DNA of 64,000 nucleotides. It comes from a phage. Every line of letters begins with the position of its first letter. Positions within the stretch are counted from its first letter, which is position 1. Below, in pieces: positions 55,518-63,789 of this stretch. The translations under genes were made by a program, and so were the position numbers. The stretch lies in the NCBI GenBank assembly GCA_014437165.1, contig GCA_014437165.1_4090.3, one strand, 5' to 3'. The notes beneath the pieces were generated by a model, which saw nothing but the letters and a program-made list of their open reading frames with translations, did not search any database and had not been told where the DNA came from.

Positions 55518-55760
55518 ATGAAAGTACTGACAGAACTAGAAATGTATCATAGATTTAATAAGTACTATCATTTACTTAAGCCTATACAGAGGATTAAATG
55601 TCCATTTGAAGAGAAACAGGTTTTAATCTATGAGCACAAGTTCTTTGTATCATTAGGTACAGATCAACAAGAGTACTATTTGACGTTGTACTTGATTACA
55701 TTAATAGATTTAATTCACTATAAAACCAAACAAGCTAATAAAGAGAAATATGAAAACTAA
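55518..55760 (+). CDS. LGTNYQ-motif small protein, paralog 28
   Basis: ATG 55518 (MKVLTELE..); ..LGTDQQEYYLTLYL.. Confidence 0.55.
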   Translation: MKVLTELEMYHRFNKYYHLLKPIQRIKCPFEEKQVLIYEHKFFVSLGTDQQEYYLTLYLITLIDLIHYKTKQANKEKYEN

Positions 55761-56094
55761 TATACAACTCAAGGTATATAAATCATTTGAACATACATAT
55801 ATCAAAAGTAGTCTATGTAGAGATGTAATGGATTACAAGGGTAAGCCATTCACAATTACCTATGATTCTTATGTTAGTGATTTATATATATCATTTGTTA
55901 ATTACGAAAATAAAATATACAAGCACGTTGATATTAAAGATTTAAGTACTTTATCACCAGAGGAATACTTTCAGGAATCATTAGTATGGGATTTAGAGTT
56001 TCCTATGCCATTAGTACATAAGATGATAGTACTAATGAAAGAATCTAAACAGGAGCCTAATGGTGATTATGAAGAACACACAGTTGAGTATTAA
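55750..56094 (+). CDS. EEYFQ-motif family protein
   Basis: ..LSTLSPEEYFQESLVWDLEFPMPLVHKM.. Confidence 0.6.
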   Translation: MKTNIQLKVYKSFEHTYIKSSLCRDVMDYKGKPFTITYDSYVSDLYISFVNYENKIYKHVDIKDLSTLSPEEYFQESLVWDLEFPMPLVHKMIVLMKESKQEPNGDYEEHTVEY

Positions 56095-56464
56095 AAGTAC
56101 TGATAATACTAAGAGTTATACAAGCTCAAGTACTGTGACAATCGAAGTGAATTCTATTAATGCTGGTAATGCAGTAGATAAGTTCTTTATTGCTCAAGGG
56201 TACAGGAAAGATATTCATCAATACTGTTCAGTATATGGGGAGTACAATTCTACTGAAGATATAATTTATTGGTCAACACATCAAGATTATATAACTAAAA
56301 TTGGCGTTCCAGATGTTAGTACTTTATCTGAAGAAGAATACTTTCAGTACAGCTTAGTACATGATGTACCTATACCTTTAGAGTTGCTCAAGGGTATACA
56401 GGAAGAGGTTCATAAGCTTAAATCCATGAGTTCAGGTACTTTCATTAGAACAGTGCAATACTAG
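56060..56464 (+). CDS. EEYFQ-motif family protein
   Basis: ..VSTLSEEEYFQYSLVHDVPIPLELLKGI..; start may be 56069. Confidence 0.55.
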   Translation: MVIMKNTQLSIKSTDNTKSYTSSSTVTIEVNSINAGNAVDKFFIAQGYRKDIHQYCSVYGEYNSTEDIIYWSTHQDYITKIGVPDVSTLSEEEYFQYSLVHDVPIPLELLKGIQEEVHKLKSMSSGTFIRTVQY

Positions 56465-56465
56465 C

Positions 56466-56494
56466 TTGACAGTACTTTTCATTACTGATATAGT
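56466..56494 (+). promoter_or_regulatory. sigma70-like promoter
   Basis: TTGACA 56466-56471, 17 nt (AGTACT..), TATAGT 56489-56494. Confidence 0.5.
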
Positions 56495-56523
56495 ACACTA
56501 ACGTTAATCATAGGGTAAAAATT

Positions 56524-56769
56524 ATGTTAAATTTTTTAAATTTCCTTATCGTTTTGTGTATTGTTCTTGGGATTGCACCATTTGTATTGTATTTCATGGA
56601 TTCAGATGAAATGCAGAAGATGAATTGCACAAGGACAGGACAGAGTAGAGAAGAGACGATTCTTATGCCTGTTACGGTTATTGTTAACAACATGCCCATT
56701 ACAAACATGGTCCCTACCCTAACGACAACGTACCAGTACTCTTGTGCTGACGGTGAGAGGTGGAGATGA
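56524..56769 (+). CDS. small membrane-anchored protein
   Basis: N-terminal hydrophobic segment MLNFLNFLIVLCIVLGIAPFVLYF. Confidence 0.5.
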   Translation: MLNFLNFLIVLCIVLGIAPFVLYFMDSDEMQKMNCTRTGQSREETILMPVTVIVNNMPITNMVPTLTTTYQYSCADGERWR

Positions 56770-57086
56770 AATTTAATATAGCAAAAACATCGAGTATATG
56801 TATTTTTGGTTATGCTGATGAGTTAGGTGATATTGACATTCTTTTGTACAAAAAGGATGGTGTTATGCATTTCAAGTACCAGGATGAAGAGGCAGACAAT
56901 TATCCTTTACCTAATTTAGTACAAATGCAGGAAGATGAATTATTCCAGTACAGCTTAGTATACGACATTGATATTTGCACGATGCCAGTACTAATTAGTA
57001 TTCAAAAAGTGATGCTCGATATGTATGATAAGCTAATACAAGGTACATCAGGGAGAATCATTGAAATCGATATACAAGACAATTAA
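56760..57086 (+). CDS. EEYFQ-motif family protein
   Basis: ..QEDELFQYSLVYDIDICTMPVL.. Confidence 0.55.
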   Translation: MEMKFNIAKTSSICIFGYADELGDIDILLYKKDGVMHFKYQDEEADNYPLPNLVQMQEDELFQYSLVYDIDICTMPVLISIQKVMLDMYDKLIQGTSGRIIEIDIQDN

Positions 57087-57279
57087 TCAAGAATGGAAGA
57101 CCCAAAAGTACAGGGAATTCAACAGGAATTTTACAAAAGATGCATTGAATTTAAAAACAACAGAGTTTGATATGTTTATTTTTCTTGGAACACGTTCACA
57201 AGAACAATTTGTTCATTATTATATAAATTCGTTGCGAACGGAGATAGTATGCAAAACACAGGGTATTATAAAAAGGTAA
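57061..57279 (+). CDS. LGTNYQ-motif small protein, paralog 29 (outlier copy)
   Basis: ..FLGTRSQEQFVHYYINSL.. Confidence 0.55.
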   Translation: MKSIYKTINQEWKTQKYREFNRNFTKDALNLKTTEFDMFIFLGTRSQEQFVHYYINSLRTEIVCKTQGIIKR

Positions 57280-61553: not shown

Positions 61554-62169
61554 TATGACCAGAATTAAAATGTATGATTTGATGCAGTACAGTAAAATTG
61601 CCATTCCGGTGCTTAATAAAGTGCTGGATGCATTCATTGCCAAATACCCTGAGAATTCAGTGTTATGTATTCCATTTAGTGTTCCAGATAAAGATGATAT
61701 ATTCCAAGTGAATGTCAGTACACGTGGTATTACATTACAGCAGAAATACATGGATACGGAATATTATGGAATAAAGTTGGATTCAGTACAGGGTTCAAAA
61801 TCAGCCTATGATTTTTTTGTTCCTAATAATATAGAGTCATGGGAAACAAACATTTCAAAGAAAGATGAAAATGATGTTCCTATTAGTGGTGTGTTCAACA
61901 ATAAAGTTTTTTATTATTACGAAACCGACAAATTCCCTGAAGAGTTATATTACAATTCAGAAATGAATGAAGATGTAGATGCATTCATGTTTCAATTATC
62001 TTTAGTACATGATATCATTGATGTTCAAGAGTTAAGAGCAGAAATCAATTTAGCTAAAGAGTTATCGGACATGCTGCCACCGTTTAGTATGCTTTTTTGT
62101 GAAGGTGGTTATTTTTCAAAAGAAGTGTTTGAACATTTCGTAGATGTTGTAAAAGGGTTGGATATATAG
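61546..62169 (+). CDS. EEYFQ-motif family protein
   Basis: ..EDVDAFMFQLSLVHDIIDVQELR.. Confidence 0.55.
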   Translation: MNDMTRIKMYDLMQYSKIAIPVLNKVLDAFIAKYPENSVLCIPFSVPDKDDIFQVNVSTRGITLQQKYMDTEYYGIKLDSVQGSKSAYDFFVPNNIESWETNISKKDENDVPISGVFNNKVFYYYETDKFPEELYYNSEMNEDVDAFMFQLSLVHDIIDVQELRAEINLAKELSDMLPPFSMLFCEGGYFSKEVFEHFVDVVKGLDI

Positions 62170-62170
62170 T

Positions 62171-62365
62171 ATGCTTACAGTTGATGTTAAACAAAAATAC
62201 CGTAAGTTTGATTGGTTCACCGACAGTTTCCAGCTTGAATTATTACATTTGAATATCTGTGAAACATTATGTGCAGAAACACAAGATGAATTTGATGATA
62301 GAGTGATGAACATAGTAATGCTTTCTTGCTTTAAACATTTTGGTTATTTTTTCGGACAGAATTGA
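62171..62365 (+). CDS. hypothetical protein
   Basis: 64 aa. Confidence 0.45.
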   Translation: MLTVDVKQKYRKFDWFTDSFQLELLHLNICETLCAETQDEFDDRVMNIVMLSCFKHFGYFFGQN

Positions 62366-62373
62366 GGTAAAAA

Positions 62374-62889
62374 ATGCATCAACACAAGCATCATTCATAT
62401 GATTTTGCAATTAACATTATGAAGTTCATTCGAGCGTTGGAGGATGGGAAGCTTAGTCATAAGTACACCAAAGTGGGTGACAATTGGTTCAGAAATGATG
62501 ATGAGTTCAGAAGTCATAAGATTGTTTACAGCAATAATTACAGTGCCAATTACCTACAAGATGTAGTGATGTGTTTTGAATACGTGTTGCAGTTCAGGGG
62601 TTCAATCCAGGATGAGTTGATGGAGCACATGTACATCCGATACCTTCCAATGCTCAAAGATGAAAATGTATTATTAAATTCAATATACCAACGAGTTCGT
62701 GAAATTGAGTGCAGGGATATATTAGATACAGAAGAATCGTATTTCCAGCAATCCCTGATTTATGCACCTGATTTATTACAGGTACATAATTTGTTTAATA
62801 CATTACGTCAAAACATCAGTACAGACATATTTTTGTCATTATCGGATTATGATACATTTGTCAAAGATTTAGAGGAAATAGGTTTATGA
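62374..62889 (+). CDS. EEYFQ-motif family protein
   Basis: ..DTEESYFQQSLIYAPDLLQVHNLF.. Confidence 0.55.
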   Translation: MHQHKHHSYDFAINIMKFIRALEDGKLSHKYTKVGDNWFRNDDEFRSHKIVYSNNYSANYLQDVVMCFEYVLQFRGSIQDELMEHMYIRYLPMLKDENVLLNSIYQRVREIECRDILDTEESYFQQSLIYAPDLLQVHNLFNTLRQNISTDIFLSLSDYDTFVKDLEEIGL

Positions 62890-63227
62890 GTCGATTTTCG
62901 GTTTGTGTGGTAAACATAAAAAGTGATGGTAGTTTAATTGAATTAGATGTATATGATGATGATAATGCATATGGTATTAAAGTACAGGATAATGATGTGC
63001 AGTTCAGTTCAAGAACAAATTTTGAAAATCCAGTCCAAGTTCCTAATTTCATAGAAGATGAAGCAGCACGTTTCCAATACGAAACGGCATATGACAATTT
63101 ACATATGCATATTGTTATGCAACAAAGTTTAGTTCAATTAGTTCCTTTGTTCAGACAAAATATATATGTACATGAATTGTCGATCAATGACGTTCGCAGT
63201 TCCGTTTTGTTCGGTACAAATATGTAA
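62886..63227 (+). CDS. EEYFQ-motif family protein (divergent)
   Basis: ATGA overlap; ..EDEAARFQYETAYDNLHMHIVM.. Confidence 0.5.
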   Translation: MSRFSVCVVNIKSDGSLIELDVYDDDNAYGIKVQDNDVQFSSRTNFENPVQVPNFIEDEAARFQYETAYDNLHMHIVMQQSLVQLVPLFRQNIYVHELSINDVRSSVLFGTNM

Positions 63228-63237
63228 GGAAAGTACA

Positions 63238-63789
63238 ATGAGTTCAATGAGTTTATTAGATACATTAGAAAAAGACAGAAGTGCAATTAAGCGTTTAAAA
63301 GAGCAAGTACAAAAGATTGTATACAACGTTGATAAGTTTGAAGTCCCAGGAAGATTTGGTGATATTTCCCATACGGAGATCAAATCCCTTAAGTCAGATT
63401 TGTTGATTAAAAATAAAAATGGGTTGATTTTAGTTTTGAGTTCAGATATGATGGGGGCAACACATAGTTATAATGCAGTATCGGTGCGTTCAGAGTGTGA
63501 AGGTATATATCTATCACAGGGTTTCAATAGCGAGACACAGGTTTGTTTTTGTGATGCAGTACATGACCCTATGAAGTTCACGAGAAGTGAAGCCCAAGCG
63601 TTATTAGAGCTATCAGACGAGAGTTTGTTTCAGTACAGTACAATGTATGACAATGATAAGCTTCGTTGTATGTACGCTGTAAAGCATTATACACAGGAGT
63701 TTTCTGGATTTGCATACCTTTTAGTTAGAACCAATACCAGATATATTGATATGTTAGAAGATTACATCGATAAAGTTGTTAATGTATGA
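63238..63789 (+). CDS. EEYFQ-motif family protein
   Basis: ATG 63238 (MSSMSLLDTL..) after AAGGAAAG; ..LSDESLFQYSTMYDNDKLRCM.. Confidence 0.55.
   Translation: MSSMSLLDTLEKDRSAIKRLKEQVQKIVYNVDKFEVPGRFGDISHTEIKSLKSDLLIKNKNGLILVLSSDMMGATHSYNAVSVRSECEGIYLSQGFNSETQVCFCDAVHDPMKFTRSEAQALLELSDESLFQYSTMYDNDKLRCMYAVKHYTQEFSGFAYLLVRTNTRYIDMLEDYIDKVVNV

Follow-up and report, generated by a model that had tools for sequence, protein, structure and literature searches.

The DNA analysed here, referred to as the window, is a stretch of 64,000 nucleotides from a phage (contig GCA_014437165.1_4090.3 of NCBI GenBank assembly GCA_014437165.1), which is AT-rich (31–39% GC) and composed mostly of gene arrays in a single orientation. 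Towards its end, between positions 55750 and 63789, lies a block of small genes whose products carry a common acidic-aromatic motif and are treated here as one family, EEYFQ, named after that motif. The block is 99.1% identical to its counterpart in Escherichia phage vB_EcoM_phAPEC6, a jumbo coliphage of the genus Asteriusvirus, and 94–98.5% identical to those of about 20 other Asteriusvirus phages of ~350 kb (121Q, PBECO4, G17, Sharanji and others, comprising both coliphages and Salmonella phages); each of the genes under these matches is annotated as 'hypothetical protein'. The window itself belongs to a ~350-kb jumbo coliphage of this genus. A preliminary description of the window, made from the sequence alone, had noted the motif in 13 open reading frames (ORFs) of the block and in one isolated copy at 11335–11997, and a six-frame search recovered exactly those 13, all on the plus strand and encoding 103–204 aa with the annotated starts, plus the isolated copy. 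An independent check was made with a position matrix derived solely from 33 family members outside the window (the downstream region of phAPEC6) and scored over all six frames. Scores of 10–31 bits were obtained for 11 of the 13 in-block members, against a null mean of −53 (standard deviation 13) and 5.5 bits for the highest-scoring unrelated site in the window. The other two have weak motifs and are joined to the family by pairwise similarity (58222–58770) and by iterated profile search (62886–63227), respectively. The features of the block are as follows, the bit values being matrix scores.

55750–56094, plus strand: member 1, 114 aa, PEEYFQESLVWD; 19.5 bits; similar to member 2 (E-value 7e-9)
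56060–56464, plus strand: member 2, 134 aa, EEEYFQYSLVHD; 30.6 bits; AlphaFold model 1; without an ortholog in 121Q
56466–56494, plus strand: σ70-like promoter, TTGACA-17-TATAGT with upstream TG, in the gap after member 2; a consensus match only
56524–56769, plus strand: ORF outside the family, 81 aa, with a strongly hydrophobic N-terminus (MLNFLNFLIVLCIVLGIAPFVLYF), directly behind the preceding promoter
56766–57086, plus strand: member 3, 106 aa, EDELFQYSLVYD; phrog_13866 (E 8e-41); AlphaFold model 2
57061–57279 and 57249–57515, plus strand: two genes of a second family, LGTNYQ, within the block; phrog_4148; they align with the main LGTNYQ array and are conserved in 121Q
58222–58770, plus strand: member 4, 182 aa, EAGVFQQSLITK, weak motif; aligned with member 6 over 90 aa (E 2.5e-7); phrog_19795
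58760–59071, plus strand: member 5, 103 aa, DEELFQQQLVID; 21.4 bits
59043–59609, plus strand: member 6, 188 aa, EEEFFQGSMLVP; 17.9 bits
59916–60422, plus strand: member 7, 168 aa, DEWWFQQNLVHD; 15.2 bits
60410–60431, plus strand: hairpin with T-run resembling an intrinsic terminator, followed by the next promoter
60448–60476, plus strand: σ70-like promoter, TTGACA-17-TATCAT
60505–61017, plus strand: member 8, 170 aa, GTG start with ribosome-binding site AAGGAG-N8-GTG, EDEYFQYSTVHR; 22.4 bits
61014–61553, plus strand: member 9, 179 aa, EEEYFQMQCIHS; 27.5 bits
61555–62169, plus strand: member 10, 204 aa, DAFMFQLSLVHD; 10.2 bits
62374–62889, plus strand: member 11, 171 aa, EESYFQQSLIYA; 17.3 bits
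62886–63227, plus strand: member 12, 113 aa, EAARFQYETAYD, degenerate motif; joined to the family in 5 of 14 iterated searches; −1.4 bits
63238–63789, plus strand: member 13, 183 aa, DESLFQYSTMYD; 21.8 bits; the array runs on past the window end
57481–57873, 58022–58225, 59596–59937 and 62171–62365: further ORFs within the block that are not family members

The preliminary description had counted about 14 paralogs. The family is real, but the count is an artefact of the window edge, because in phAPEC6 the array goes on for ~20 kb beyond it; from the equivalent of position 55750 to gp404c it contains 47 motif-bearing genes among 62 annotated ones, and its 28.7 kb make up 8% of the genome. The evidence is in favour of a family of paralogs: local iterated search connected ~44 ORFs with each other and none in a shuffled control, and four pairs of in-block ORFs gave pairwise alignments of 50–90 aa at E-values of 1e-5 to 1e-9.

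Within the 13 in-block genes the motif reads [ST]-E-E-x-[YL]-F-Q-x-S-[LT]-[VI]-[YHF]-[DN], and it occupies a fixed place, the FQ pair being followed by 39–75 residues to the C-terminus in 47 of 47 copies and preceded by an N-terminal part of 55–175 aa. In an ungapped stack of the 47 copies, the information content exceeded the 99th percentile of the null from position −10 to +7, with the consensus D-x-[TS]-x-L-[ST]-E-E-x-[YL]-F-Q-x-S-[LT]-[VI]-[YHF]-[DN], and also at hydrophobic positions +11, +14, +15, +18 and +20 to +22, so that the conserved module amounts to ~33 residues (−10 to +22). The conserved positions between +11 and +22 agree with the hydrophobic, helix-like stretch described earlier behind the motif, and the flanks are indeed as variable as had been stated: outside the ~33-residue core the copies are almost unalignable, and the mean column identity among them is 18%. 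Judged from these alignments, homology of the core module is solid and that of the entire proteins is likely.

Conservation acts at the level of the protein and not of the DNA, because synonymous codons vary freely. Phenylalanine and glutamine, which are invariant by selection of the set, are encoded by TTT 25 and TTC 22 times and by CAG 27 and CAA 20 times, respectively, while the codons of the motif serine come from both boxes (AGT 18, AGC 5, TCA 8, TCG 3, TCC 2). DNA similarity between paralogs is limited to 28–58 nt, the part encoding the motif. Conservation of the motif as a DNA or RNA element was rejected on account of the same free variation among synonymous codons.

AlphaFold2 was run twice, with different members and different alignments (56060–56464, and 56766–57086 together with metagenomic relatives), and both models have an identical topology at a mean predicted local distance difference test score (pLDDT) of 64.7 and 66.7. 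A four- to five-stranded antiparallel sheet and a short strand before the motif are followed by helix 1, a loop, helix 2 and a final strand. Helix 1 is formed by the motif itself (E-[DE]-E-x-F-Q-x-S-L-V in the models), where the confidence peaks with a block mean pLDDT of 87, and helix 2 corresponds to the hydrophobic stretch mentioned above. Foldseek against BFVD recovered RaK2 proteins (E 1e-6, template-modelling score 0.76). Read by the general helix-capping rules, the models suggest that the S/T of the motif is a helix N-cap followed by an acidic first turn, and that F, L/T and V/I may constitute a buried face packing on the sheet.

The same motif could instead be a shared docking or recognition element, through which all copies reach a single common partner (for instance a chaperone, a protease or some machine of the host or phage) and carry their variable parts as cargo. 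Besides F and Q, the adjacent E-E, S, L/T and V/I recur in 64–100% of the 47 copies, no other segment is predicted with as much confidence as the motif, and the motif behaves as a separable unit, since the ortholog of 59043–59609 in Salmonella phage SD-1_S14 (P0024) has lost exactly 12 residues in frame, namely EEEFFQGSMLVP, i.e. the motif, the remainder being near-identical. In both models, however, the motif adopts an α-helix that is built into the fold between sheet and helix 2, and is no disordered linker; docking appears unlikely. Two known elements bear a loose likeness to the motif: the β-clamp-binding motif has the form QL[SD]LF, and cleavage sites of the tobacco etch virus (TEV)/NIa type read ExxYxQ followed by S or G. 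Neither consensus fits. Q is followed by a variable, often polar residue (Y, E, Q, L, N and others), the serine stands two positions on, tyrosine is found at P3 in just 15 of the 47 copies, threonine takes the place of leucine in 18 of 47, and no cognate protease of the 3C/NIa type was seen in the annotated stretches. Both a TEV-like site and a β-clamp-binding motif were rejected, the positions being misfitted and the segment predicted to be helical and within the fold.

Comparison of the 13 genes with their counterparts gave ratios of non-synonymous to synonymous substitution rates (dN/dS) of 0.43 for 121Q and 0.41 for the related phage E9.1; values of ~0.4 indicate real coding sequence under relaxed purifying selection. 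The divergence is mosaic, with 58760–59071 sharing 58% amino acid identity with its 121Q counterpart and the adjoining genes 90–100%; 121Q is without an ortholog of 56060–56464, and several other isolates have insertions or deletions in the block. The mosaic divergence and the missing ortholog suggest, on sequence comparison, gene replacement or recombination within the array.

For the arrays of 121Q, Hua et al. 2017 have proposed a capsid ratchet (PMC5646251), in which duplications persist because the additional DNA is tolerated or needed by a jumbo capsid filled by the headful mechanism. Applied here, the EEYFQ genes would be largely dispensable filler, and both the copy content differing among isolates and the relaxed constraint expressed by a dN/dS of 0.4 are in line with that proposal. 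Its probability is nevertheless considered low: dN/dS stays well below 1, the ORFs are intact, the motif is retained in the protein across genera and in divergent metagenomic lineages despite the lost DNA similarity, and the genes are tightly packed, with overlapping stops and starts and with ribosome-binding sites.

The distribution of the family is restricted. A word-indexed search of 5.8 billion proteins yielded 47 matches, the named ones being all proteins of Escherichia or Salmonella jumbo phages and none having a Pfam domain, and tblastn with single members found matches just in Asteriusvirus and its near relatives, with P0065 giving no match at all. Many orthologs (P0001, P0009, P0017, P0020 and others) are filed in NCBI as 'Escherichia coli' on contigs of 348–366 kb, which points to whole jumbo-phage genomes within bacterial assemblies, either as a carrier state or as contamination. 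An exhaustive profile search over 1.84 billion cluster representatives gave 31 matches at E ≤ 1e-3, every one with LSEEExFQxSLVxD, and the five metagenomic contigs encoding the distant matches each contain an array, with 9, 19, 28, 31 and 32 profile matches in 13–20 kb. For one of these arrays (L018), neither blastn nor tblastn gave a match among GenBank phages. The Alcyoneusvirus Muenster, a Klebsiella phage, had 26 profile matches in the 40-kb stretch scanned. A 33-kb IMG/VR contig (L014) carries a single-copy ORF of 162 aa (9044–9532, minus strand) with LNLSEEEHFQQSLVRDD near its N-terminus, matched by the hidden Markov model (HMM) of the core at E 2e-6, and this ORF has no PHROG or Pfam match; the contig looks like a temperate phage because it encodes a serine recombinase, a large terminase and a helicase-like protein. 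A degenerate DNA pattern of the motif hit 8 loci in IMG/VR and 120 loci in metagenomes, nearly all of them single chance matches, and only the Asteriusvirus-like loci are real. A Pfam match to T4 gene 30.3 within one metagenomic array (L005) was discarded as an unrelated inserted gene without the motif.

The members within the window match individual PHROG families (phrog_13866, 19795, 33987, 34516, 30978, 33775, 31297, 28680, 33448, 30243 and 12674) at E-values of 1e-41 to 1e-144. Weak cross-matches exist among these families, and PHROGs splits the EEYFQ members over more than 12 of them.

The position of the array relative to the genome end can be deduced from phage E9.1, in whose linear record positions 1–20107 are identical to 347745–367851. 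Terminal repeats of comparable length are known from Sharanji (20.7 kb, by PhageTerm), Muenster (20.0 kb, annotated) and CBB (22.5 kb; PMC5259590). The E9.1 repeat maps to the following part of the window, listed with the features next to it.

27924–49020, no strand: stretch equivalent to the 20.1-kb direct terminal repeat (DTR) of E9.1
49541–49569, plus strand: σ70-like promoter just upstream of the main LGTNYQ array
49604–55760, plus strand: main LGTNYQ array, ~29 genes of 65–96 aa

From the end inward, and on one strand, a repeat full of small genes is thus followed by the promoter, by the ~29 LGTNYQ genes and by the EEYFQ array, the block of which starts 6.7 kb inward of the DTR-equivalent stretch. 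The intergenic gaps of the block contain two σ70-like promoters with a perfect TTGACA (56466–56494 and 60448–60476; 11 of 12 matches). From the position, the σ70-like promoters and the terminator, it is probable that the host RNA polymerase transcribes the array shortly after the DNA has entered the cell; the equivalent region of CBB has been predicted to be early, with RpoD-like promoters (PMC5259590). The published virion proteome of phAPEC6, a mass spectrometry table, has no entry from between gp347 and gp549, a range that includes the array (gp404–gp466); the EEYFQ family is therefore not structural, and virion proteins or injected internal proteins are ruled out by this absence. When window positions 30001–55000 were compared with other Asteriusvirus genomes, the DTR-equivalent stretch was found to be far more mosaic than the EEYFQ block: no record covered 80% of it in one place, and the matches were split into 3–16 pieces of 90–97% identity.

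The two LGTNYQ genes within the block, noted earlier as outliers of that family, are genuine members (phrog_4148, E 7e-9 for 57061–57279 and 1.6e-3 for 57249–57515), and a functional link between the two families, for example as partner pairs, had been suggested from their shared location. In a weak sense this link stands, since the families co-occur and interleave. Muenster has 12 LGTNYQ and 26 EEYFQ matches interleaved directly downstream of its 20-kb repeat, so that co-occurrence extends to a related genome, and both families are also found together in phage A4-like genomes, besides Asteriusvirus and Alcyoneusvirus.

Specific partner pairs are unsupported. According to such a model, each acidic EEYFQ protein would have a small basic LGTNYQ protein as its partner, to bind or to neutralise, in the manner of toxin–antitoxin or effector–immunity systems. 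In its favour, the families interleave in two genera, Asteriusvirus and Alcyoneusvirus, two LGTNYQ genes overlap the end of one EEYFQ gene within one operon, and the opposite charge trend (median isoelectric point (pI) 5.0 for EEYFQ and 8.4 for LGTNYQ) is weak evidence that keeps the idea alive. The arrangement, on the other hand, consists of same-family runs of 2–29 genes, and of 2–6 genes in Muenster, without alternating 1:1 units in either the window or Muenster; a 1:1 adjacency duplicated as a unit, as in toxin–antitoxin or effector–immunity modules, was not observed. The copy numbers are unequal (~47 EEYFQ, ~31 LGTNYQ), and the LGTNYQ profile had no match in the fetched 13–20 kb of the five divergent metagenomic contigs with 9–32 EEYFQ members each. 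With tblastn, LGTNYQ matches were confined to Escherichia and Salmonella jumbo phages, though the profile matched Muenster. The two families are not homologous either (hhalign probability 0.2%). Cognate pairs are accordingly regarded as very unlikely, and parallel expansion of the two families within a single plastic early region would fit the pattern better.

Further candidate members lie outside the block.

25650–26321, plus strand: divergent member, 223 aa, EEELFMYSTVID; core HMM domain 13.7 bits; matrix score 16.0 bits
11335–11997, plus strand: the 'isolated copy', of doubtful membership, SDLMFQYSLIHK; matrix score 0.2 bits; pI 9.2

The isolated copy of the preliminary description is doubtful as a member. 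In addition to its low matrix score, it is basic in an acidic family and was not linked by iterated search, and with a core HMM built without it 13.4 bits were reached only with the filters off. It is directly preceded by another paralog array, eight tandem ORFs of 104–141 aa (8513–11293, plus strand), all of which resemble multi-pass membrane proteins in their basic C-termini and extended hydrophobic segments. A better divergent copy, which had been overlooked, is present at 25650–26321 (LQEEELFMYSTVID; …LQEEELFMYSTVIDN…), its motif lying 47 aa from the C-terminus. This copy interrupts a third small-gene family just outside the start of the DTR-equivalent stretch, consisting of ~16 tandem ORFs of 59–82 aa (24173–27650, plus strand) with a common N-terminal …EFY/EYY… and C-terminal …L(I/L)(Y/F)R(Y/H). 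Between the end of the DTR-equivalent stretch and the LGTNYQ array, an ORF of 121 aa (49152–49517, plus strand) was matched by two iterated searches and not by the core HMM; its C-terminal part, LSEKAFAKEAKKWDFKLPIELVREIQKL, resembles LSEEEYFQYSLVHDVPIPLELLKGIQEEV by eye, and it may be a degenerate EEYFQ member without FQ. A different set of eight or nine paralogs of 380–440 aa occupies 12455–24071 on the minus strand; these are annotated as 'regulator of chromosome condensation' in E9.1 and appear as 'DNA condensation proteins' in the phAPEC6 virion proteome.

We tentatively favour the reading of the array as a tandemly expanded set of early, small, acidic cytoplasmic proteins with a helix-centred core and diversified surfaces, serving host interaction or anti-defence. 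What the analysis shows is that the family exists, how far it extends, where it lies and how narrowly it is distributed, that selection acts on the protein and that the virion lacks it; we infer that expression is early, how the motif serves the fold, and what the proteins do. According to this proposal, EEYFQ would be one fast-diverging, mostly acidic non-virion family of ~100–200 aa specific to RaK2-like jumbo phages. A common C-terminal core, predicted to run from a short strand through helix 1 (the motif) and a second amphipathic helix to a closing β-strand, would rest on an antiparallel β-sheet, whose sequence, like that of the N-terminal extension, appears to be different in every copy. 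The genes, which lie a few kilobases inward of the left terminal repeat and are all directed away from the end, would be divided into several units by the putative σ70-like promoters and terminator. The copies would act as diversified binders, each on a different host factor or defence protein in host takeover or anti-defence, and the set would grow and reshuffle through tandem duplication, gene loss and recombination.

The acidity on which this proposal draws is marked, with a median pI of 4.97, a median net charge of −9 and a pI below 5.5 in 81% of the members. Such a strong negative charge is a property of DNA-mimic anti-restriction proteins of the Ocr and ArdA type as well, and no sequence or fold similarity to a known mimic was found.

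Several observations weigh against the proposed host-directed set. Many roles would be consistent with acidic, rapidly diverging proteins. The early timing rests on position and consensus promoter matches, and no transcriptome was found in the literature on the genus Asteriusvirus. Promoter-like sites total 80, which is no excess over shuffled sequence (86 ± 8), and only the well-placed promoters therefore carry weight. When the motif was masked, just three small subfamilies were still found by pairwise search, and leave-one-out profiles of the N- and C-flanks alone, with the motif excluded, were not significant; because these searches fail, common descent can be claimed for the core module but, as regards the whole proteins, not for every copy. 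Finally, no functional homolog was found, since searches of Pfam, NCBIfam and PADLOC and a profile search of PDB sequences gave nothing significant, and the PHROG matches of the members are all of 'unknown function'.

Tandem paralog arrays in jumbo phages are a known phenomenon. They were noted in 121Q and phage G by Hua et al. 2017 (PMC5646251), ~35 zinc-ribbon copies were described in phage G by Iyer et al. 2021 (PMC7824862), and nearly 10% of the RaK2 products are paralogues (PMC3622015). The EEYFQ array is similar in being a lineage-specific tandem expansion of small genes without assigned function in phages of 350–500 kb, belongs to the same phage group and probably overlaps arrays mentioned in those papers, where, however, 'very similar' genes or a percentage are given, whereas the EEYFQ copies are highly divergent. 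Neither the family nor its motif, its ~47 copies or its cross-genus presence is named or delimited in that literature, and the family is not described in a 2021 comparative survey or in a 2026 jumbo-phage review. Since the literature notes the arrays in passing and PHROGs divides the members among families of 'unknown function' instead of uniting them into one, the EEYFQ family, with its motif, size and cross-genus conservation, appears to be new to the literature.

Among better-known systems, the pre-early genes in the terminal repeat of T5 and the clusters of small early ORFs of T4 consist mostly of unrelated genes. The EEYFQ array resembles these early blocks in its many small, packed, non-virion genes of one orientation near the terminal repeat with σ70-like promoters, and differs from them in being one family repeated ~47 times, with a timing that is deduced. 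The MGF110, MGF360 and MGF505 multigene families (MGF) of African swine fever virus (ASFV) and the terminal ankyrin and Bcl-2-like families of poxviruses, the 'genomic accordions', have a demonstrated role in host range or immune evasion. They share with the EEYFQ array tandem divergent paralogs near the genome termini and a content varying between isolates; the EEYFQ family shows no sequence or fold relationship to these proteins, and a host-range or immune-evasion role is hypothesised for it by analogy. It is possible, if doubtful, that the ~47 copies of one α+β scaffold, together with the ~30 LGTNYQ genes, form an expandable set that is the counterpart of the poxvirus and ASFV families, each copy neutralising a different host defence or factor.

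Most genes of jumbo phages are without assigned function, and in Asteriusvirus the EEYFQ family takes up ~8% of the genome and about one in ten genes, the EEYFQ and LGTNYQ arrays together filling ~35 kb directly behind the terminal repeat. By uniting more than 12 'unknown' PHROG families, the present analysis provides experimenters with a defined motif, a predicted fold, a position and clear boundaries, and the array is a compact target for asking what the early load of orphan ORFs does in a jumbo phage. Should its genes be dispensable, the idea that jumbo genomes grow by a capsid ratchet would gain support; should they be diversified anti-defence or host-takeover factors, new inhibitors could be found among them in large number. 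If the array is indeed an expandable anti-host set, its changing content would help to explain how RaK2-like phages cope with varied hosts.

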